From a virus (lineage: Duplodnaviria > Heunggongvirae > Uroviricota > Caudoviricetes), in IMG/VR virus record IMGVR_UViG_2563366888_000019, positions 1 through 40,901 of that record: a DNA stretch of 40,901 bases. One strand, given 5' to 3'. The position numbers were made by a program, and so were the translations under genes. The notes under the pieces are model-generated. The model was not told where the DNA came from. It saw only the letters and a program-made list of their open reading frames with translations, and made no database searches. Shown piece by piece: positions 1 through 40,901 of the stretch (the stretch's first letter is position 1; every line of letters starts with the position of its first letter).

Positions 1-516
1 ATGAAATTTAAAAAATGTCTTCTGCCTGTGGCAATGTTAGCGTCATTCACTCTGGCAGGATGCCAGTCAAATGCTGACGATCATGCTGCCGATGTTTATC
101 AAACCGATCAACTGAATACCAAACAAGAAACTAAAACCGTTAATATTATTTCCATTCTTCCCGCAAAAGTTGCCGTAGACAACTCCCAAAATAAACGGAA
201 CGCACAAGCCTTCGGCGCGCTTATTGGCGCAGTCGCTGGCGGTGTTATCGGCCACAACGTCGGGTCTGGCAGCAATTCCGGAACGACGGCAGGTGCAGTT
301 GGCGGCGGAGCTGTAGGCGCGGCAGCGGGTTCTATGGTGAATGATAAAACCTTAGTGGAAGGTGTTTCTTTAACCTATAAGGAAGGCACCAAAGTGTATA
401 CCTCTACCCAGGTGGGTAAAGAGTGCCAGTTTACGACAGGTTTAGCCGTTGTTATTACCACGACGTATAACGAAACGCGTATTCAGCCAAATACCAAATG
501 TCCTGAAAAGAGCTAA
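1..516 (+). CDS. glycine-zipper lipoprotein (171 aa)
   Basis: ATG at position 1; signal peptide ending in lipobox LAGC; Gly/Ala-rich AVAGGVIGHNVGSG zipper segment; lies outside the phage late block. Confidence 0.6.
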   Translation: MKFKKCLLPVAMLASFTLAGCQSNADDHAADVYQTDQLNTKQETKTVNIISILPAKVAVDNSQNKRNAQAFGALIGAVAGGVIGHNVGSGSNSGTTAGAVGGGAVGAAAGSMVNDKTLVEGVSLTYKEGTKVYTSTQVGKECQFTTGLAVVITTTYNETRIQPNTKCPEKS

Positions 517-531
517 TAATCAGGAGGAGTC

Positions 532-1071
532 ATGAAGAAAGTTTTTCTTTGCGCCATCTTAGCCTCCTTAAGCTATCCGGCTATCGCCTCATCATTGCAG
601 GATCAACTCTCTGCTGTCGCAGAAGCGGAACAGCAAGGTAAAAATGAAGAGCAAAGGCAGCATGACGAATGGGTCGCGGAGCGCAACAGGGAAATCCAGC
701 AAGAGAAGCAACGTCGCGCAAATGCCCAGGCCGCCGCTAACAAAAGAGCGGCAACGGCAGCGGCAAATAAGAAAGCTCGTCAGGATAAACTGGACGCCGA
801 AGCCTCTGCGGACAAAAAACGCGATCAAAGTTATGAAGATGAGCTACGCAGCTTAGAGATTCAGAAACAAAAACTGGCGCTGGCGAAAGAAGAAGCCCGC
901 GTTAAGCGAGAAAACGAATTTATCGATCAGGAACTGAAGCACAAAGCTGCGCAAACCGATGTGGTGCAATCTGAAGCTGACGCCAACAGAAATATGACTG
1001 AAGGCGGTCGCGATCTGATGAAAAGCGTGGGCAAAGCAGAAGAGAACAAATCGGACAGCTGGTTTAATTAA
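532..1071 (+). CDS. secreted Ala/Lys/Glu/Gln-rich coiled-coil protein (179 aa), function unknown
   Basis: AGGAGG 6 nt upstream of ATG; N-terminal signal peptide; highly charged helical body. Confidence 0.55.
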   Translation: MKKVFLCAILASLSYPAIASSLQDQLSAVAEAEQQGKNEEQRQHDEWVAERNREIQQEKQRRANAQAAANKRAATAAANKKARQDKLDAEASADKKRDQSYEDELRSLEIQKQKLALAKEEARVKRENEFIDQELKHKAAQTDVVQSEADANRNMTEGGRDLMKSVGKAEENKSDSWFN

Positions 1072-3585: not shown

Positions 3586-5771
3586 GAAACTTCCCCATTG
3601 GTTGAAAATATGGCTCCTCCAACGCCAAGTGTATTTCGTGTTGTGCTCAACCTCAGAGGGCTGGAGTCAGAATTAGAATATCCTGTAGCAGAAATAAAAG
3701 ATCCTCCACTAATAGTCAACTGCGGAACATCGGCTATATCTGAATAAGTTCTGTCAGCAACAGTATTATTTATAGCCACATATGATCCAAAAAAACTTCT
3801 TATTGTTTGGTTTTTAACTTTACTTCCTTCAATGGTTATCCTACTACCACAGTCGGCAATAAATCCTGAATCTGCATCCAGCGTTGCATTCATAAAAGAA
3901 GCTTCAGATCTCTCTACATCAATCCATCTAATATCTTTTGTGGGATTTGCACCAAATACATGACAAATATTAGAGTTAAACCTTACACCATCTTGGAGGT
4001 GCATTAATTTTTTTATATCTGTACCCCATAGCCTTGGAAAATTAACAGATGCTCCTGCATGGCAATCAAATCCCAGCTCAGCCCCTGAGATATCTACAGC
4101 CTTTCCTGAAATAACAGCACCAGTGTCTGCATTAACGGCTGTTCCACAATTGCGCATATCATTACCAGCAACATCAACGCAACCCGCACCATCAATACGC
4201 ACACCAAGTGCACATCCATAAAAACCTTTTTCAATATTTGGTTCAAGGACTTTACCACTTGTTTCTGCATCACTTTCTTCAACGTCATGTCGTCTTGCAT
4301 CAACATATGCTGTATGAATGCAGGTTAATCCACGATATGAGCAATGTATAGTTTTATGGTCGCGTATATTAACATTTGAACCATCTCTTACATTCCATCC
4401 TATATAACAATAGATTGCACTTGACCCCTGAAAATCTGCTTTAACATTATAAATACAATTAACTGACGCAACCGTACTCTCTGTGCACCGTTCAAACTTG
4501 CTTACAGGCATTGATGCCTTGACATTATTTACCAGTTGCAGGGAAGAGTATCTGCTATAAGAAAAATCACATACGTAATATCCTTCTGGCATATATGCAG
4601 CAACACTTTCCTCATCAGGAGCACATCCGGTATGATATGCACTAATTTTTGCACCAAAACTACCATGAATTCCAACGTAGAACTTTCGAGCACCTGAATA
4701 CGGATAGAAATTAAGTTCAGCTTTTTGAGTTACAATAAATGCACAAACATCGCTATCATCTCTATTTTCTTCGATCTGAATAGCAAATACAGGACTTTTT
4801 GCTGCATCGCAAATGTAAAATAAATACTTGTATTCGTAATACGTTCTAACGATTTTAGTAAACAAACGAGTGTCAGAGAAAACCACTGAGTCTTCTGATG
4901 TTATTTTAATCCAAGACAAATCAACACCTGAACTGAATTCAATTTGATAGTTGATAATATGCCCGGTCTTAATTCTTATTTCGCAGAAAGCATTACCACC
5001 ATCCCACATAGGTCTCATTGACTGGGCTGCAATGATTGCATCTTTGAGTGTAGGGTAATCACCCCATTCGCCAACAGTAATAACAAAAGTATAATATGAG
5101 TTAAAAACAGCGGCATTTTTGCCTTTGGATATCAACTCCTTAATCATAAAAATATTATCTTCGTAATCACAAGGAGAAATTATATCCCTCATTTTGCTTT
5201 GAAATGTTCGTTGTCTTGCCCCGCTTCCTGACGGTATAAACCAACCAAAACCACCAACAACCCCGGCGATTGCAGCATCGACATAATTACGCATTGAGCG
5301 ATTATTTACAGCGTCCTGCTCAAATGATGGATCTGCAAGGTTAGAAATTTTGTTTTGCTTTGCATCGTAATATTTTGCAAGCAAAGATGGTTTCATCAAT
5401 GCACGTCTGAACCACCCAAAACATCGCTGGATCAGCATCGTCAGGTAGTCAAATGCATCTTCATGAACTTCGGGGAAAAATTTTCCCTGATTGCGAAGAT
5501 CAGTCTCCTGCACCACATCAAGCACACGCTCTATCGTAATTCGCCAGCCAGCAGCAAGCGGCGACGGGAGAACCACTTCACCGCCACTATAAGTGCCCGC
5601 TCCAGTTACCTTATAACCGGTATCCAGAACCAATTCTGTTACGTTCCCGTTCAGGTCAGACACCTGAACAACCAGGTCTGATTTTTTGAAAATACGGAAG
5701 GTATACGGAAACGATGTCGTAACGCCGTTACCGGTGTATTCGTTGTGGTCAACTTCGGTTGAGACCGTCAT
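3582..5771 (-). CDS. tailspike / tail fibre with T7-type N-terminal adaptor and beta-helix-like C-terminal domain (729 aa)
   Basis: N-terminal ~120 aa resemble the conserved podovirus tail-fibre adaptor domain; C-terminal part AT-rich, Gly/Asn/Ser/Cys-rich. Confidence 0.8.
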   Translation of the reverse strand: MTVSTEVDHNEYTGNGVTTSFPYTFRIFKKSDLVVQVSDLNGNVTELVLDTGYKVTGAGTYSGGEVVLPSPLAAGWRITIERVLDVVQETDLRNQGKFFPEVHEDAFDYLTMLIQRCFGWFRRALMKPSLLAKYYDAKQNKISNLADPSFEQDAVNNRSMRNYVDAAIAGVVGGFGWFIPSGSGARQRTFQSKMRDIISPCDYEDNIFMIKELISKGKNAAVFNSYYTFVITVGEWGDYPTLKDAIIAAQSMRPMWDGGNAFCEIRIKTGHIINYQIEFSSGVDLSWIKITSEDSVVFSDTRLFTKIVRTYYEYKYLFYICDAAKSPVFAIQIEENRDDSDVCAFIVTQKAELNFYPYSGARKFYVGIHGSFGAKISAYHTGCAPDEESVAAYMPEGYYVCDFSYSRYSSLQLVNNVKASMPVSKFERCTESTVASVNCIYNVKADFQGSSAIYCYIGWNVRDGSNVNIRDHKTIHCSYRGLTCIHTAYVDARRHDVEESDAETSGKVLEPNIEKGFYGCALGVRIDGAGCVDVAGNDMRNCGTAVNADTGAVISGKAVDISGAELGFDCHAGASVNFPRLWGTDIKKLMHLQDGVRFNSNICHVFGANPTKDIRWIDVERSEASFMNATLDADSGFIADCGSRITIEGSKVKNQTIRSFFGSYVAINNTVADRTYSDIADVPQLTISGGSFISATGYSNSDSSPLRLSTTRNTLGVGGAIFSTNGEVS

Positions 5772-34687: not shown

Positions 34688-35272
34688 ATGAAAAGTATCC
34701 AGGACGTCCGCAGGCAAAATCTCAACGACTTGATCGACCGTGAATTCAATGGTGTTCAGACGCGGATGGCTGAAAAACTTGGAACTCAGGCAAATCTGGT
34801 AAACCGCTGGGCTCTTGGCAAGAAGGTTATCGGCGACCAGGTTGCGCGAAAAATTGAAGCTGCCGCCAATAAACCCCGTAACTGGCTTGATATCGATCGC
34901 TCGCTTTCTCAGGAAGGTTTTCAGCCTGTCGGACCAAGCGACATTGGTCAACTGGCGGCTCACAACCTGGAACGCTGGATGAGCGAAAGCCGCGACCTTT
35001 CAACGCAGGGAAAACTTCACCGCGCATCCGGCGTCGCCCAGGTGACAATCAGCCGCCTGTTAAACAATGAGGTCAGCGTTTCCATTTCCACCCTGGAGAA
35101 TGTTGCATCCGCATTCGGGCGTCACGGCTATGAATTACTGATTCACCCGCACGACCCTGCGACTATCAACTATGACCGCTCGCGCTACGCTTTGTTACCC
35201 GAAACCGAGAAAGCAAAGATCGAAAGTTACATTGAATTTGTCATCAACCAGAACGAAAAAAACAAACAATAA
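34688..35272 (+). CDS. prophage repressor candidate, tandem HTH, no S24 peptidase domain (194 aa)
   Basis: two HTH-like segments (QTRMAEKLGTQANLVNRWALG and ASGVAQVTISRLLNNEVSVS); no Ser-Lys autocleavage motifs; divergent from Cro-like; weak SD; terminator follows. Confidence 0.55.
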   Translation: MKSIQDVRRQNLNDLIDREFNGVQTRMAEKLGTQANLVNRWALGKKVIGDQVARKIEAAANKPRNWLDIDRSLSQEGFQPVGPSDIGQLAAHNLERWMSESRDLSTQGKLHRASGVAQVTISRLLNNEVSVSISTLENVASAFGRHGYELLIHPHDPATINYDRSRYALLPETEKAKIESYIEFVINQNEKNKQ

Positions 35273-35292: not shown

Positions 35293-35318
35293 AAGCCGCC
35301 TTATGGCGGCTTTTTTAT
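35293..35318 (+). terminator. rho-independent terminator
   Basis: GCCGCC-TTAT-GGCGGC then T7. Confidence 0.7.
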
Positions 35319-35363: not shown

Positions 35364-35392
35364 TTGACACCAAACCAGATACGCATAATTAT
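35364..35392 (+). promoter_or_regulatory. early-left promoter candidate
   Basis: -35 TTGACA at 35364-35369, AT-rich -10 region about 17 bp later, flanked by sites 12 and 13. Confidence 0.45.
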
Positions 35393-35407
35393 TACCTCAA
35401 CGGTAAC
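35391..35407. promoter_or_regulatory. operator-like palindrome ATTACCTCAACGGTAAC (site 13)
   Basis: overlaps -10/+1 of the early-left promoter; centre 62 bp from site 12. Confidence 0.6.
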
Positions 35408-35425
35408 AGACCGAGGTAACAAGTT

Positions 35426-35578
35426 ATGCAGTGGAAAATCATCAACGGTTGGTACTGCGTTACTGCATGCGGATTCATGAGCTGGAAGTTCCGCACCTTA
35501 CAGGAAGGCATTAAGTGGGCTTTCGTCAGCAAAGAAGCTCGCGATGTAGCCAACGATAACGAGATATGGGAGGGCTGA
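35426..35578 (+). CDS. small hypothetical protein (50 aa)
   Basis: GAGGT SD 8 nt upstream of ATG; first gene of plus-strand early operon. Confidence 0.4.
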   Translation: MQWKIINGWYCVTACGFMSWKFRTLQEGIKWAFVSKEARDVANDNEIWEG

Positions 35579-35580
35579 TA

Positions 35581-35880
35581 ATGAACGTTAATCAGCAGAA
35601 AAATCTTCAAAAAATCATGCTGGCATTCGACAAGGACTACCGCCTGTCAGAACAGCTATATGACCGACAAGTTGAACTGATTGAGAGCATCCGACTTCAT
35701 CAACTGTCCTCAACTTTTGACGTTGTAACAGGCAAAGGCGTTCGTCAGGAAGTACTGGAGGCTGCTAAAGACAGCCCTGAGTTCGAAGAACTGATGGATG
35801 CCTATCGGCGAGAGGCAATGGCAATTATCGCCCGCTGGGATCTGGCGGATCAGCTTGATGGACAGAGGGACGCGGCATGA
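35581..35880 (+). CDS. hypothetical early protein (99 aa)
   Basis: GGGAGGG SD; stop overlaps next start (ATGA). Confidence 0.5.
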   Translation: MNVNQQKNLQKIMLAFDKDYRLSEQLYDRQVELIESIRLHQLSSTFDVVTGKGVRQEVLEAAKDSPEFEELMDAYRREAMAIIARWDLADQLDGQRDAA

Positions 35881-36698
35881 AACCGGGAATTTATTTCGAC
35901 ATCAGCAACGAAGACTACCACGCCGGTGACGGCGTGAGTAAGTCGCAACTGGACATGGTTGCCAAGAATCCGGCGCTTCTTAAATGGGTCCAGGCAGCAC
36001 CAGAAGACGAAGAGAAAAAGTCTGCACTGGATATGGGAACCGCATTGCACTGTCTGCTTCTGGAGCCTGGAGAGTTCGACAAACGCTTCATTGTTTCACC
36101 GAAATTCGATCGTCGGACGAAACAAGGTAAAGCTGACGAAGAGGAATTTCTTCGTGATGTGGCGGATATGGGGATTACGGTACTTGATGCCGAGCAGTGG
36201 CGGAAACTGGAGCTGATGCGTGATAGCGCAATGGCTCACCCGGCGGCACGCTGGATGCTGGAAGCACCTGGTTACTGCGAAGCATCAATGTACTGGAACG
36301 ATGAAGAGACGGGGGAGTTGTGCCGAATTCGTCCAGACAAATGGCTGAACGAGCACAACGTGATCGTCGACGTGAAAAAGGTTGCAGATATGGACCGTTT
36401 TGCACGCCACATCGAGGAATTCCGCTACCACGTGCAGGACGCAATGTACCGCGAAGGCGCAATGAGGGTTACTGGTCAGCCGCATGGTTTTTTCTTTCTT
36501 GCCGTGAGCGAAAGCATTGATTGTGGTCGGTATCCGGTACGCGTGTTCGAGCTGGATGCGCCGGATGTCGATGCCGGGCACGCTCTGTTCCGCCGGGATC
36601 TGAATACCTATCACGAATGCCGCATAAATGATGAATGGGGCGGTGTGGAAATCATTAAACGCCCTGAGTGGGCACGCAAACAGGATATGTACATATGA
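35877..36698 (+). CDS. PD-(D/E)XK-type exonuclease, partner of annealing protein (273 aa)
   Basis: RPDKW...IVDVKKV resembles a PD...(D/E)xK nuclease core; immediately upstream of and overlapping Bet/RecT gene. Confidence 0.6.
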   Translation: MKPGIYFDISNEDYHAGDGVSKSQLDMVAKNPALLKWVQAAPEDEEKKSALDMGTALHCLLLEPGEFDKRFIVSPKFDRRTKQGKADEEEFLRDVADMGITVLDAEQWRKLELMRDSAMAHPAARWMLEAPGYCEASMYWNDEETGELCRIRPDKWLNEHNVIVDVKKVADMDRFARHIEEFRYHVQDAMYREGAMRVTGQPHGFFFLAVSESIDCGRYPVRVFELDAPDVDAGHALFRRDLNTYHECRINDEWGGVEIIKRPEWARKQDMYI

Positions 36699-37636
36699 GC
36701 AACGACATCGCAAACATCAACGCACCAGTAGACACAGCAATCGCTGGAACTGCTGCAACTATTTTCAGCCCAGACGGCTTGAACCAACTGATGAAATTCG
36801 CCGAGGTAATGGCGCAAAGCCGCGTAACGGTACCGGCGCACCTCGCCGGGAAACCAGCTGATTGCATGGCCGTGGCAATGCAGGCTGCGCAGTGGGGAAT
36901 GAACCCGTTTGCCGTGGCTCAGAAAACCCATGTTGTGAACGGCACGCTAGGTTATGAAGCCCAATTAGTAAACGCAGTTATCTCAACGATGTCGCCAACA
37001 AAAGATCGCATCAACTACGAGTGGTTCGGGCCGTGGGAACGCGTGATCGGTAAGTTTGTTGAGAAAACATCCAAAAACGGCAATCCATATATCGCACCAG
37101 GCTGGACTCTAAAAGACGAAGAAGGCTGCGGTGTTCGCGTATGGGCAACCATGAAGGGCGAGGATCAACCTCGAGTGCTTGAGTTAATGCTGTCTCAAGC
37201 ACAGGTAAGAAACTCCACACTTTGGGCCAGTGATCCGAAACAACAACTCGCATACCTTGCGACAAAACGCTGGTCTCGCTTGCACTGTCCTGACGTAATC
37301 ATGGGCGTCTACACACCAGACGAATTACAGGAAACGGCACCGCGCGTTGAGCGAGACATTACTCCGCAAACGACCACTGCTGCGGGAATGAACAGTCTGA
37401 TCAACGCTAAACCAGTGAAAAAGCCTGATGAGCAAACTCGTAAAGCGGATAGCCGTGATCCAGAAGAAATGCTGATGGCCTTTACCAGCGCAGCGATGAA
37501 TTACAGCACTGTCTCCGAACTGAATAAGGCTTACAAATACATTGCACAAAAACTTTCAGATGATGACGAACTGCTGGCAAAAGCCACCGACGTTTACAGC
37601 GTTCGTCGGGAAGAATTAAACGAAACATCTATGTAA
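36695..37636 (+). CDS. Bet/RecT-family single-strand annealing protein (313 aa)
   Basis: ERDITP segment and overall resemblance to lambda Bet as recalled; exo-SSAP gene pair. Confidence 0.7.
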   Translation: MSNDIANINAPVDTAIAGTAATIFSPDGLNQLMKFAEVMAQSRVTVPAHLAGKPADCMAVAMQAAQWGMNPFAVAQKTHVVNGTLGYEAQLVNAVISTMSPTKDRINYEWFGPWERVIGKFVEKTSKNGNPYIAPGWTLKDEEGCGVRVWATMKGEDQPRVLELMLSQAQVRNSTLWASDPKQQLAYLATKRWSRLHCPDVIMGVYTPDELQETAPRVERDITPQTTTAAGMNSLINAKPVKKPDEQTRKADSRDPEEMLMAFTSAAMNYSTVSELNKAYKYIAQKLSDDDELLAKATDVYSVRREELNETSM

Positions 37637-37644
37637 CCACCACC

Positions 37645-37663
37645 GCGGCGCCACACGCGCCGC
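37645..37663. other. GC-rich hairpin GCGGCGC-N5-GCGCCGC
   Basis: perfect 7-bp stem between RecT-like and AlpA-like genes; no T-run. Confidence 0.4.
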
Positions 37664-37685
37664 ACTGCAACCAAGAGAGGTATTT

Positions 37686-37934
37686 ATGAAAGGTGCATTA
37701 GGTAAGAAGGAACTCCTGGCGGTGGTGCCACTGTCATGGAGCACTATCGACCGTATGGAGCGCGCAGGGGAATTTCCTAAACGCTGGTATATCACTGACA
37801 AACGCTGCGCATGGAACCGTGACGAAGTTGAGCGTTGGCTTGATGAACGTCAGGCAGCAAGCCCGGCAGAGTTCCAGGGTAAAAAACCTCCTGTTCAGCA
37901 ACGTGTATATCGTCCCGTGAGCAACGCTGCATGA
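37686..37934 (+). CDS. AlpA-family DNA-binding protein (excisionase/regulator type) (82 aa)
   Basis: VPLSWSTIDRMERAGEFPKRW...WNRDEVERWL matches AlpA/Xis HTH pattern. Confidence 0.6.
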   Translation: MKGALGKKELLAVVPLSWSTIDRMERAGEFPKRWYITDKRCAWNRDEVERWLDERQAASPAEFQGKKPPVQQRVYRPVSNAA

Positions 37935-38091
37935 GTGCGCTGCTAAGGCACTGGAGCAAATGGTCAGGATGGTACTTATTCCTGGCCTCTGTTTCAGCAT
38001 GGCTTTATCTGCTGGCATTAATTTTCAGAGAGGGTTGGATTAAGTGAGAAAGTTAAGCCGACTTGAAAAATATCACATGAATAAGGTTTCA

Positions 38092-38343
38092 ATGCGCAGT
38101 CCGTCAAAGATTGTCGCCGTTACTCCTGCGGCGATAGAGATCGAAAAACGCGCGATTGAAAGAGAGAAAAAAGGGCAGTTCCGCATTGCCGCTCACCTTT
38201 GGCTTCAGTGTATGGATGTTGCTTCTGGTGATGTTGAACGTGCAAGGATCGCGGTTCGCAGGGACCAATGTATCACAAAAGGTAACGGCCTTCGCCGTGG
38301 CGACTATAGCGGCATAGGATGTTGTGGGGTGGTTTATGACTAA
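38092..38343 (+). CDS. PerC-family transcriptional regulator-like protein (83 aa, start uncertain)
   Basis: GQFRIAAHLWLQCMDV...RDQC resembles PerC pattern; AAGG SD before ATG 38092. Confidence 0.5.
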   Translation: MRSPSKIVAVTPAAIEIEKRAIEREKKGQFRIAAHLWLQCMDVASGDVERARIAVRRDQCITKGNGLRRGDYSGIGCCGVVYD

Positions 38344-38986
38344 GAAATACACACTAATCTATGCAGATCCACCCTGGGTATACCGTGACAAAGCCGCAGA
38401 TGGTAATCGCGGTGCCGGTTTTAAATATCCGGTTATGAGTGTGCTGGATATCTGCCGCCTTCCTGTGTGGGATTTGGCCGATGAAAACTGTCTGTTGGCC
38501 ATGTGGTGGGTGCCAACACAACCACTCGAAGCACTAAAAGTTGTTGAAGCCTGGGGATTCCGTCTGATGACCATGAAGGGCTTCACGTGGATAAAATGTG
38601 GTAGTCGACAACCAGATAAACTGGTTATGGGTATGGGACACATGACTCGCGCCAATAGTGAAGATTGCCTGTTTGCAGTAAAGGGAAAACTACCTCCACG
38701 CATTAATGCAGGGATCGTTCAGTCATTTACCGCACCGCGGCTTGAGCATTCAAGAAAACCAGATGTCGTTCGTGAAAAACTTGTGCAATTGTTAGGCGAT
38801 GTTTCTCGCATTGAACTGTTCGCCCGCCAGACGTCTCATGGCTTCGATGTTTGGGGTAATCAGTGCGAAGACCCGGCAGTGCAACTACACCCTGGATACG
38901 CGTTGGATATTGGCGGATTAACAAATGCATTCAGCAATGCTCCGCTGTCACCAACAGACAACCAGGGGCGGGAGCGTGCAGCATGA
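38336..38986 (+). CDS. MT-A70-family N6-adenine DNA methyltransferase (216 aa)
   Basis: DPPW motif in IYADPPWVY; ATGA overlap with next gene. Confidence 0.8.
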
Positions 38987-39642
38987 ACCTATATCAACGC
39001 ATCAATGGCGCTGACTGGTGCAATATCTTCGTCGTCGGCGATCTGCATGGGTGCTACACGCTGCTGATGAACGAACTCGACAAAGTTTCATTCGACCCGG
39101 CGCGCGATTTGCTTATTTCCGTTGGTGACCTTGTTGACCGCGGCGCTGAAAACGTCGAATGCCTGGATTTGATTACTATGCCGTGGTTCCGAGCTGTTCG
39201 TGGCAACCATGAGCAGATGATGCTGGATGCACTGGTCAACGGCGGAAGTTTCGGACATTGGATGTCAAACGGCGGTGGATGGTGGCACCAACTTGATTCT
39301 GAGCAGGATGTGCAACTCAAATACCTTCTGCCAAAGGTTACCAACCTCCCGATGATTATCGAACTGGTTACCGGCAATAAGAAGGTCGTCATCTGCCACG
39401 CAGACTACCCGCACAACGAATACGCATTCGATAAGCCAGTACCGGAAGAAATGGTGATATGGAATCGTGAGCGGGTTAGCGACGCGCAGGACGGTATTGT
39501 CTCGGAGATAACCGGTGCCGATTTGTTCATCTTCGGTCATACGCCAGCACATCACCCACTAGTGTATGCAAACCAGATGTACATCGACACCGGCGCAGTG
39601 TTCTGCGGAAATCTGACGCTTACCAAAGTCCAGGAAGGATAG
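38983..39642 (+). CDS. lambda-type Ser/Thr protein phosphatase (219 aa)
   Basis: metallophosphatase motifs GDLHG, GDLVDRG, RGNHE. Confidence 0.8.
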
Positions 39643-39644
39643 AA

Positions 39645-40901
39645 TTATTTATTACTGTCTTCCATCCACCTCTCAAACTTCGACGGGGAGAACGGAATCA
39701 GATCCGTATGCTCCCCATTAATCCAGGAATCAATCATATCGGCCCACTGCTGCAACATGTAGGCGCGCTGTCTGGCGTATTCCGCTTTGTTATATACGGC
39801 GCGCACACCTTTCTGCTCATGTGCCAGAGCCTTTTCAATCCAGTCTGAAGGATAACCAGCCTCATGCAACAACGTACTTGCTGTACGGCGCATATCGTGT
39901 ACGGTGAAGCCCTGAATATGCTCACCATCTTCATTTATTATTTTCACCGTTCTGTCGATCAGAGAGTTCAGCGCGGCATTAGATAATGGCTTCCGGAAAT
40001 TGTAACGACCAGGAACCAGATATTCACTTCCACCAGCGCACATCTGCAACCCGACCAATATATCCTGAGCCTGTTTAGGCAGGTAAATAACGTGCGCCCG
40101 GCTTCCCTTCATGCGGTCTGAAGGAATTGTCCATGTCCATTTTTTAAAATCTATTTCATCCCACGTTGCGTTGGTGAATTCGCCTTTACGAACCATAGTG
40201 ATAAGCACCAGCTTTAAAGCCATTTTCATAGTGCCCATAGCACCAATGGCATCCAGCGTGCGGAAGAACAGGCCAATTTCTTCTGGTGTCAGTGTTCGCT
40301 CTCGTGGTTTAAATATGGCGATAGACGAAGGTTTAATGTCAGCCGCAGGATTAAACAAACCATGACCACGGTCATTGGCGTGACGGTATACGCTGCTGAT
40401 GATCTCCCTGGCCTGTACTGCTGTTGCCCGACCACCGCGTTCGACAATCCGGTCACACAAATCACGAACCATCGATGTGGTAATTTCAGCCATCATTTTG
40501 TTGCCAAGAACCGGAAGTATGTCACGGTCGATCACCGCCTGCTTCATTGCGCGGGTACTGTCAGCCAGGATGACGTGTTTCATATAACTGTCGGTATGTA
40601 CCGCAAACGTCTCAGCACCACGAATCTTTTTGATACCGTCACGTTTAGCCGCAGCCGGTGACTGGCCTGCTTTAAGCAGCTTCTTTGCAGCAATCAGTTC
40701 TTCCCGCGCTTCTGCCAGGCTGATACCGTCACGCCCATACTGCCCGATTACCAGTGTTTCGCGGCGACCGTTGATACGGTAGTCATAGCGAAACGAGACC
40801 GTGCCTGACGTAAGTACAGCTACATACAGCCCGTCACGATCGGAGACCTTGTACAGTTTGTCCTGCGGCTTGAGGTTTTTTAATTTTGTATCGGTAAGCA
40901 C
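39645..40901 (-). CDS. int: tyrosine integrase, 5' end at or beyond window edge (at least 418 aa)
   Basis: C-terminal H-x-x-R (HDMRRTAST) and catalytic Tyr region (VRAVYNKAEY); first codon in window is GTG at the edge; convergent with phosphatase gene. Confidence 0.85.
   Translation of the reverse strand: MLTDTKLKNLKPQDKLYKVSDRDGLYVAVLTSGTVSFRYDYRINGRRETLVIGQYGRDGISLAEAREELIAAKKLLKAGQSPAAAKRDGIKKIRGAETFAVHTDSYMKHVILADSTRAMKQAVIDRDILPVLGNKMMAEITTSMVRDLCDRIVERGGRATAVQAREIISSVYRHANDRGHGLFNPAADIKPSSIAIFKPRERTLTPEEIGLFFRTLDAIGAMGTMKMALKLVLITMVRKGEFTNATWDEIDFKKWTWTIPSDRMKGSRAHVIYLPKQAQDILVGLQMCAGGSEYLVPGRYNFRKPLSNAALNSLIDRTVKIINEDGEHIQGFTVHDMRRTASTLLHEAGYPSDWIEKALAHEQKGVRAVYNKAEYARQRAYMLQQWADMIDSWINGEHTDLIPFSPSKFERWMEDSNK

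Follow-up and report, generated by a model that had tools for sequence, protein, structure and literature searches.

PerC of EPEC and the Pch proteins of EHEC activate transcription by competing with H-NS for AT-rich DNA; binding of Pch to DNA was observed by ChIP, and its co-precipitation with H-NS failed (PMC4764244). Activation of LEE is limited to some of the PerC homologues, most of those tested (PchD, PchE) being inactive on LEE (PMC6265319). METTL3 and MTA1, both MT-A70 proteins, depend on accessory binding proteins and on partner subunits that are inactive. Lambdoid phages encode the protein phosphatase NinI in their early-right operon, within the nin region and adjoining NinH or NinE; ninI of lambda is nonessential (PMC10695390). 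Relatives of PerC, of the MT-A70 proteins and of NinI are encoded next to each other in the prophage described here.

The DNA analysed, a stretch of 40,901 nucleotides referred to as the window, covers nearly the entire length of a Uetakevirus (phiV10/epsilon15-like) prophage of E. coli that adjoins guaA. The first genes of the window are two host-like ones, coding for a glycine-zipper lipoprotein and a DUF5384 protein, followed by the phage genes for spanin, endolysin, and holin; yfgI-like host genes flank the prophage on one side and guaA on the other. The 2.1-kb stretch from 37600 to 39700 shares 99.9% DNA identity with a prophage of E. coli KC-Dl-1 (NZ_CP063046), in which the integrase gene is followed by guaA-guaB-xseA, and 99.1% with Escherichia phage vB_EcoP_PAS61 (OQ921333). 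PAS61 and the KC-Dl-1-type prophages contain the genes for the AlpA-family protein, a small membrane protein, the PerC-like protein, the MT-A70 methyltransferase, the phosphatase, and a convergent integrase in the same order as the window, from which they show essentially no difference; only the annotated start codon of the PerC-like gene varies among the records. The corresponding genes gp36–gp31 of phiV10 (NC_007804), comprising those for AlpA, the membrane protein, the PerC-like protein (gp34), the methyltransferase (gp33), and the integrase, are 99.2% identical outside the phosphatase segment, which phiV10 lacks; a 64-aa DUF1382 gene (gp32) is found in its place.

Among 5426 complete E. 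coli genomes, 641 contain the module, and in 143 of these (about 22%) the phosphatase gene is covered as well. The sequence-only reading had named a PerC-like regulator, an MT-A70 methyltransferase, and a Ser/Thr phosphatase, and all three genes exist as named on the plus strand, as indicated by profile matches and by the RefSeq and GenBank annotations at the corresponding coordinates. The RefSeq products of KC-Dl-1 are “PerC family transcriptional regulator”, “MT-A70 family methyltransferase”, and “serine/threonine protein phosphatase”, and the GenBank annotation of PAS61 is the same. The three-gene module is already public: a sequenced phage and about 143 complete genomes of E. coli have been deposited with these genes annotated by name.

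Gene layout at the distal end of the operon

We consider it fairly probable that the segment 38044–39642 represents the distal end of a repressor-controlled delayed-early operon of the Uetakevirus prophage, resembling the PL operon of lambda. This operon would comprise, in order, two small ORFs, the genes of a RecE-like nuclease and RecT, the AlpA/Xis-like gene, the gene of the 38-aa membrane protein, and the PerC-like, MT-A70, and phosphatase genes (Table 1). The earlier placement of the three genes, last in the early-left-type recombination operon and directly before the integrase gene, is borne out, the latter being convergent. Their description as the three genes between the recombination genes and the integrase was correct as to their presence but not as to the count, since five genes lie between RecT and the integrase; those of the AlpA/Xis-like protein and the membrane protein had been omitted.

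Table 1 Features of the putative early-left promoter region and of the distal end of the operon
Feature	Position	Strand	Basis and remarks
Operator-like palindrome TTACCTAACGGGTAA	35330..35344		Precedes the -35 hexamer of the putative early-left promoter
Sigma-70 promoter-like site, TTGACA-17-AATTAT	35364..35392	+	Match to the consensus only (10 of 12 positions); heads the operon
Second operator-like palindrome TTACCTCAACGGTAA	35392..35406		Overlaps the -10 hexamer as well as the probable start of transcription (near 35395)
AlpA-family regulator/excisionase-like gene, 82 aa	37686..37934	+	PF05930, 24.2 bits; phrog_66; phiV10 gp36
Gene of 38-aa membrane protein	37931..38047	+	phrog_17484, E=3e-27; phiV10 gp35, epsilon15 gp32; start overlaps AlpA stop as ATGA
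Putative PerC-family small helical regulator, 99 aa	38044..38343	+	PF06069, phrog_868; GTG start overlaps upstream stop as GTGA
Putative orphan MT-A70 (beta-class) N6-adenine methyltransferase, 216 aa	38336..38986	+	PF05063, phrog_359; 8-nt overlap with PerC-like gene
Putative Mn-dependent Ser/Thr protein phosphatase of the lambda NinI type, 219 aa	38983..39642	+	1G5B, phrog_246; ATG overlaps methyltransferase stop as ATGA
Exchangeable cassette, 673 bp	38989..39661		Alignment with phiV10, where about 203 bp with the DUF1382 gene are found
P4-type tyrosine integrase	39645..40901	-	Convergent with the operon; stop 2 nt from phosphatase stop

The successive genes from AlpA to the phosphatase overlap by 4–8 nt, the junctions being ATGA, GTGA, the 8-nt sequence ATGACTAA, and again ATGA. 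Such a pattern of overlapping starts and stops is typical of translational coupling, and the genes of the operon would be read as one translationally coupled unit following induction or infection. Three antisense ORFs of 82–114 aa (38359–38703, 39054–39392, and 38104–38352) gave no family match in a Pfam search, and we rejected antisense ORFs in 38044–39642 as real genes.

The PerC-like gene is annotated with different starts, at 38092 in RefSeq and at 38077 in phiV10; a further alternative is a GTG at 38044. The sequence-only reading let the region begin at 38092, in agreement with RefSeq, but the true start is probably the upstream GTG. The phrog_868 match spans all 99 residues counted from 38044, and in tblastn comparisons the conservation begins at residue 1, or 3–4, in every relative. 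The first codon, GTG in E. coli, is ATG in the relatives from Salmonella and Enterobacter, and the internal Met codons at 38092 and 38077 are replaced by Gln and Leu codons in epsilon15. In three pairwise comparisons, 8 of 12, 6 of 9, and 6 of 9 substitutions within the first 16 codons affected the third position. Because these codons behave as coding, because of the ATG in relatives and the loss of the Met codons in epsilon15, and because of the GTGA overlap with the preceding gene, a 99-aa gene at 38044–38343 with a GTG start is most likely, and the true start probably lies 48 nt upstream of the RefSeq start and 33 nt upstream of that annotated in phiV10.

Promoter-like site, operator motifs and predicted expression

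The promoter-like site at the head of the operon is preceded by a terminator-like hairpin at 35293–35312 and is flanked by two exact palindromes of the form TTACC-N5-GGTAA (Table 1). The window contains 14 occurrences of this motif, as compared to 0.53 expected, and the epsilon15 record annotates it as binding sites of the lysogeny repressor before the homologous operon. A 194-aa double-HTH protein encoded at 34688–35272 is a candidate for binding to the palindromes in the window. A consensus-based scan of the plus strand from 35392 to 39642 revealed neither a further promoter-like nor a terminator-like site; a promoter and a terminator of their own, as required of a moron, were thus not seen for the three genes in these consensus scans. 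Since the sole promoter-like site is flanked by operator motifs, internal promoters were not detected, and the genes overlap, we expect the PerC-like, MT-A70, and phosphatase genes to be expressed on induction or infection and to remain unexpressed as long as lysogeny is stable. Through spontaneous induction or leaky repression, lysogens may show low-level expression of the operon.

An alternative to which we give little credence is that the module serves lysogenic conversion, the resident prophage expressing all three genes so that the PerC-like protein would act on host transcription, the methyltransferase on the methylome, and the phosphatase on signalling. The PerC/Pch homologues of other prophages do control host virulence and biofilm genes (PMC4764244, PMC6265319), but the PerC-like and MT-A70 genes are kept across four host genera without a common virulence regulon, and other E. 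coli prophage methyltransferases are reported to be silent in lysogens (PMC5778455, PMC4659465). The epsilon15 serotype-conversion gene after the methyltransferase indicates that the operon end can hold host-directed functions; however, in the window the three genes are not set apart from the overlapping genes upstream by any promoter-like site or terminator, and the operator motifs bracket the only promoter-like site of the operon. With expression in the lysogen predicted to be absent, the earlier proposal of a PerC-like protein made by the prophage and influencing the expression of host genes is weakened and not favoured. The reading preferred here, expression as part of the delayed-early operon, places the action of all three proteins in lytic development.

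The MT-A70 methyltransferase and the PerC-like protein

The 220-aa ORF of the methyltransferase matches PF05063 with 78.8 bits, residues 9–180 aligning with positions 1–172 of 172 and hence with the full domain, and it matches the methyltransferase family phrog_359 with E=2e-120. The catalytic motif IV, DPPW, is located at residues 11–14; among 25 homologues, P12 and W14 do not vary, and D11 and P13 hardly do. Of the solved structures, those of Tetrahymena MTA1 and of the catalytic domain of METTL3 are closest both in sequence and in fold (Foldseek, E about 1e-9, TM about 0.6, with a query model of moderate confidence, pLDDT 62). The full-length PF05063 domain, the DPPW motif, and the fold are shared with METTL3, MTA1, and the MT-A70 proteins of the lambdoid nin region; a gene for a partner subunit, as METTL3 and MTA1 require, is not evident in the window. 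The 216-aa protein consists essentially of the catalytic domain alone, followed by a variable C-terminal tail of 30 residues, which is missing in most homologues; this is suggestive of an enzyme that lacks a target-recognition domain. A literature search for the target specificity of this methyltransferase family did not yield a published motif. The non-specific prophage enzymes M.EcoGI and M.EcoGII were ruled out as relatives, as they belong to another family (349 aa, DPPY), and M.EcoGIX was ruled out as a precedent because it is plasmid-borne and single-strand-specific.

MT-A70 genes were present in phiV10, epsilon15, BUCT554, and SPNIS2, i.e. in all four genus members examined. The family is large (2238 clusters). 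Homologues of about 70% identity and 190–200 aa are located between NinB and NinD in delayed-early operons of lambdoid phages, and another phage type carries a homologue of about 70% identity at a different position. Within Uetakevirus the methyltransferase thus appears to be largely a lineage gene, though mobile between phage types.

All neighbours of the methyltransferase gene could be identified. None of the adjoining genes, namely the PerC-like gene, the phosphatase gene and then int, codes for a nuclease, so a cognate restriction endonuclease is absent from its surroundings and the methyltransferase is regarded as an orphan. This makes a role in anti-restriction plausible, and self-methylation during lytic replication would be the most economical explanation: the enzyme would N6-methylate adenines of the replicating phage DNA, shielding the progeny from some restriction systems. 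In a PADLOC scan, the methyltransferase matched a generic Type II methyltransferase model (256 bits), and the AlpA-like protein, the membrane protein, the PerC-like protein, and the phosphatase gave no match. Interpretation of the module as a prophage defence system was rejected, since it was the methyltransferase alone that matched, and this to a generic model.

The methylation might instead mark phage DNA or RNA mainly for internal use, such as expression timing, replication, packaging, or the lysis-lysogeny decision, and possibly in conjunction with the PerC-like protein; we rate this as improbable. The roles of METTL3 and MTA1, which are regulatory rather than defensive, with METTL3 acting on RNA, would agree with such a function, as would the bare catalytic domain without an obvious target-recognition domain, but the match to the PADLOC model points to a Type II DNA methyltransferase. 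The PerC-like and MT-A70 genes, which overlap by 8 nt, are kept together in phiV10-type phages; however, the linkage is not obligatory, as DUF1317 separates the genes in epsilon15 and BUCT554 and the lambdoid MT-A70 genes occur without a PerC-like gene. For the same reasons, the idea of an obligate PerC-MT-A70 pair, prompted by one cluster with a 297-aa fusion protein, was rejected.

The PerC-like protein matches the Pfam family PerC (PF06069) with 30.1 bits, exceeding the cutoff of 22.6, residues 35–80 aligning with positions 5–50 of the 90 profile positions; the match to the PerC-like family phrog_868 had E=6e-62. BLASTP against authentic EPEC PerC (pMAR2) gave 40% identity over 60 aa (PerC residues 5–64, E=2e-10), and hhalign assigned a probability of 95.6% to the alignment of the two proteins. 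These comparisons show the PerC-like protein to be a homologue of EPEC PerC, as judged by its alignments. Using the PerC-like protein as query, all tblastn matches at E≤1e-3 were in phages of the Uetakevirus type, and pMAR2-type perC was not matched in plasmids at E≤0.01; the relationship to PerC is therefore a distant one. Compared with PerC, the phage protein has 33 additional N-terminal residues and lacks the last 25. Like EPEC PerC and EHEC Pch, it is a small, helical member of the PerC family encoded on a mobile element; in contrast to these, which have their own promoter, it is encoded inside a repressed phage operon.

In the phage collection, a match was obtained in 36 records, which without exception are of the Uetakevirus type and contain the gene in full length, with 64–99% amino acid identity; their hosts are E. 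coli, Salmonella, Enterobacter, and Klebsiella. This presence throughout suggests a conserved lineage gene, not cargo. The PerC-like subfamily is narrow, comprising 134 clusters; the best 120 of the 134 are all at least 55% identical to the window protein. A search of the literature on the epsilon15 PerC-like gene returned nothing relevant.

By analogy to Pch and PerC, we infer that this small phage protein would act against silencing of the H-NS type or as an activator of transcription. Likely targets would be AT-rich promoters of the phage itself or of the host in lytic development; as PchD and PchE do not activate LEE, the targets cannot be deduced from family membership.

Alternatively, and in our view rather doubtfully, the protein would work by protein–protein contacts and not by binding DNA, like the ANR/Aar family, whose members bind AraC-type activators and H-NS: the core residues 35–77 show a weak match to the NCBIfam “ANR family transcriptional regulator” (E=3e-5), though its 23.6 bits fall below the curated cutoff of 32 bits, and the AlphaFold model (four helices, pLDDT 73) is a small helical bundle without a recognisable DNA-binding fold, though the best, MIT/TPR-like matches in the PDB are not significant (E above 0.4; best E=0.46) and provide no mechanistic clue, and Pch, as mentioned above, was found on DNA by ChIP and was not co-precipitated with H-NS (PMC4764244).

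A more speculative reading, which we would put forward as an outside chance, combines both proteins. The PerC-like protein would be an anti-silencing switch of the Uetakevirus lineage itself, which on induction might displace H-NS from AT-rich regions of the phage genome (the GC content of the window at 3–6 kb is 38–43%), and the minimal MT-A70 enzyme encoded by the overlapping gene would lack a target-recognition domain and have relaxed specificity, resulting in broad protection from restriction. Near-non-specific methylation by a prophage, as known from M.EcoGII, would then have a second architecture.

The phosphatase and the slot before the integrase

The phosphatase aligns without gaps over 217 residues with lambda phosphatase (1G5B, E=7e-100) and matches the Metallophos profile (58.9 bits) and phrog_246, “NinI-like” (E=9e-108). 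With the NinI-type phosphatases encoded by HK446, IME10, and DE3, a phage derived from lambda, it shares about 65–68% amino acid identity. The motifs GDxHG, GDxVDRG, and GNHE and the distal histidines are conserved; D20, H22, D49, R53, N75, H76, H139, and H186, which following the lambda phosphatase structure we take to be the catalytic and metal-binding residues, are all kept. Identification as the E. coli phosphatases PrpA or PrpB was rejected, since the scores remained under the cutoffs of both NCBIfam equivalogs (NF008516, 266 bits versus 326; NF007425, 221 versus 332). In contrast to the lambdoid ninI genes of the early-right operon, the phosphatase gene is the last one of an early-left recombination operon of a podovirus, situated between the MT-A70 and integrase genes. 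The phosphatase is a NinI homologue in a new context; by its position it is not a nin gene.

The copies of the phosphatase gene in E. coli genomes that are at least 95% identical all adjoin MT-A70 among the matches listed, and the next-closest copies, with 79% nucleotide identity, adjoin NinE in lambdoid elements. Alignment with phiV10 delimits the exchangeable cassette (Table 1). Its left breakpoint directly follows the ATGAA start junction, and the right breakpoint falls within the last codons of int, the C-terminus of the integrase being ...ERWMEDSNK in the window versus ...EKWMAGE in phiV10. In epsilon15, it is the serotype-conversion gene that occupies the slot after the methyltransferase. 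The alignments show that the phosphatase gene was acquired in a minority of E. coli copies, by what appears as a cassette exchange.

The designation of all three genes as cargo holds for one of them only. Among near-identical phages, the phosphatase gene is variably present, occurring in 143 of 641 copies and being absent from phiV10, whereas the PerC-like gene, present in full length in 36 of 36 matching phage records, does not vary and the MT-A70 gene, found in four of four genus members, largely does not. The slot between MT-A70 and int is, as far as these alignments indicate, the only true cargo position. In the lytic cycle, the phosphatase would dephosphorylate host phosphoproteins and, like lambda ninI, it would be dispensable. 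A literature search on NinI phosphatases of phages in defence or counter-defence retrieved only the nonessentiality of lambda ninI.

As the module has already been deposited and named, its analysis has little importance beyond annotation. For this very common prophage, the label “PerC family regulator” should not be read as denoting a virulence regulator that is active in the lysogen. The specificity of a widespread and very small phage MT-A70 enzyme constitutes a reasonable, if small, experimental question, and the slot between MT-A70 and int provides a defined point of exchange at which accessory genes of lambdoid phages may enter a podovirus.

Gene content of the early-left operon

The two last genes of the early-left operon both have relatives in the nin regions of lambdoid phages: beside the NinI-type phosphatase, the MT-A70 methyltransferase has a homologue of about 70% identity in three lambdoid prophage contigs (L011–L013), encoded at 4001–4591 and flanked by NinB and NinD. 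In a relative, Salmonella phage SPNIS2 (L005, 3448–5324), the methyltransferase slot of this operon holds a longer adenine methylase of 270 aa, immediately preceded on its 5' side by a DGQHR-domain protein of 355 aa; these two proteins may constitute a different modification-related pair. The phosphatase gene itself belongs to a cassette exchange, with a DUF1382 cassette occupying its place in phiV10 (L001, about 5390–5592). The left breakpoint of the exchange is located directly 3' of the overlapping stop-start junction, while the right one falls within the final int codons and alters the C-terminal tail of the integrase.

The start codons of the PerC-like gene assigned in RefSeq (38092) and in phiV10 (38077) are probably too far downstream. 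The 16 codons 5' of the RefSeq start (38044–38092) are conserved as coding sequence, and relatives carry an ATG start where the window has GTG (38044). A sub-threshold match to the NCBIfam model ANR (AraC negative regulator) covers the PerC core (residues 35–77), which hints at a possible relationship between the PerC and ANR families.

The RecE-like nuclease and RecT are encoded by two separate ORFs, whereas a single 1761-nt RecE-RecT fusion is annotated in phiV10 (L001, 2277–4037); this difference reflects either a true fusion or a frameshift in one of the records. The ORFs overlap by 31 nt when counted from the mechanical GTG start of RecT, but only by 4 nt from the RefSeq start, about 27 nt further downstream.

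Features located in the window
Feature	Position	Strand	Size
Glycine-zipper/TraT-like lipoprotein	within 1–1071	+	171 aa
DUF5384 protein	within 1–1071	+	179 aa
RecE-like nuclease	35877–36698	+	
RecT	36668–37636	+	
ANR match	38146–38274	+	
Phosphatase cassette	38989–39661		
TTACC-N5-GGTAA sites, first seven	5876, 7284, 7409, 8460, 25632, 28774, 28792		
TTACC-N5-GGTAA sites, last seven	32225, 32287, 34233, 34570, 34618, 35330, 35392		

Integrase junction and probable insertion site

The convergent int gene and early-left operon have stop codons only 2 nt apart, and no terminator-like site was found between them (39640–39647); transcripts reading through the operon end would be antisense to int. 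The corresponding junction of epsilon15, in contrast, comprises about 150 nt, within which an RNase III site is annotated; control of int may thus vary among these phages.

Two genes precede the phage spanin at the left end. Judged by the K-12 gene order, they resemble the host genes yfgH and yfgI; given this identity, the prophage would sit between yfgI and guaA.

Operator-like palindromes along the prophage

With at most one mismatch allowed, the palindrome TTACC-N5-GGTAA occurs 14 times in the window, as compared to 0.53 expected copies, and none of 100 shuffled sequences contained more than three. The same motif is annotated as repressor operators in epsilon15. The sites are scattered along the entire prophage, apparently mostly between gene blocks, suggesting that many transcription units are under the control of one regulator, the immunity region not being its sole target.
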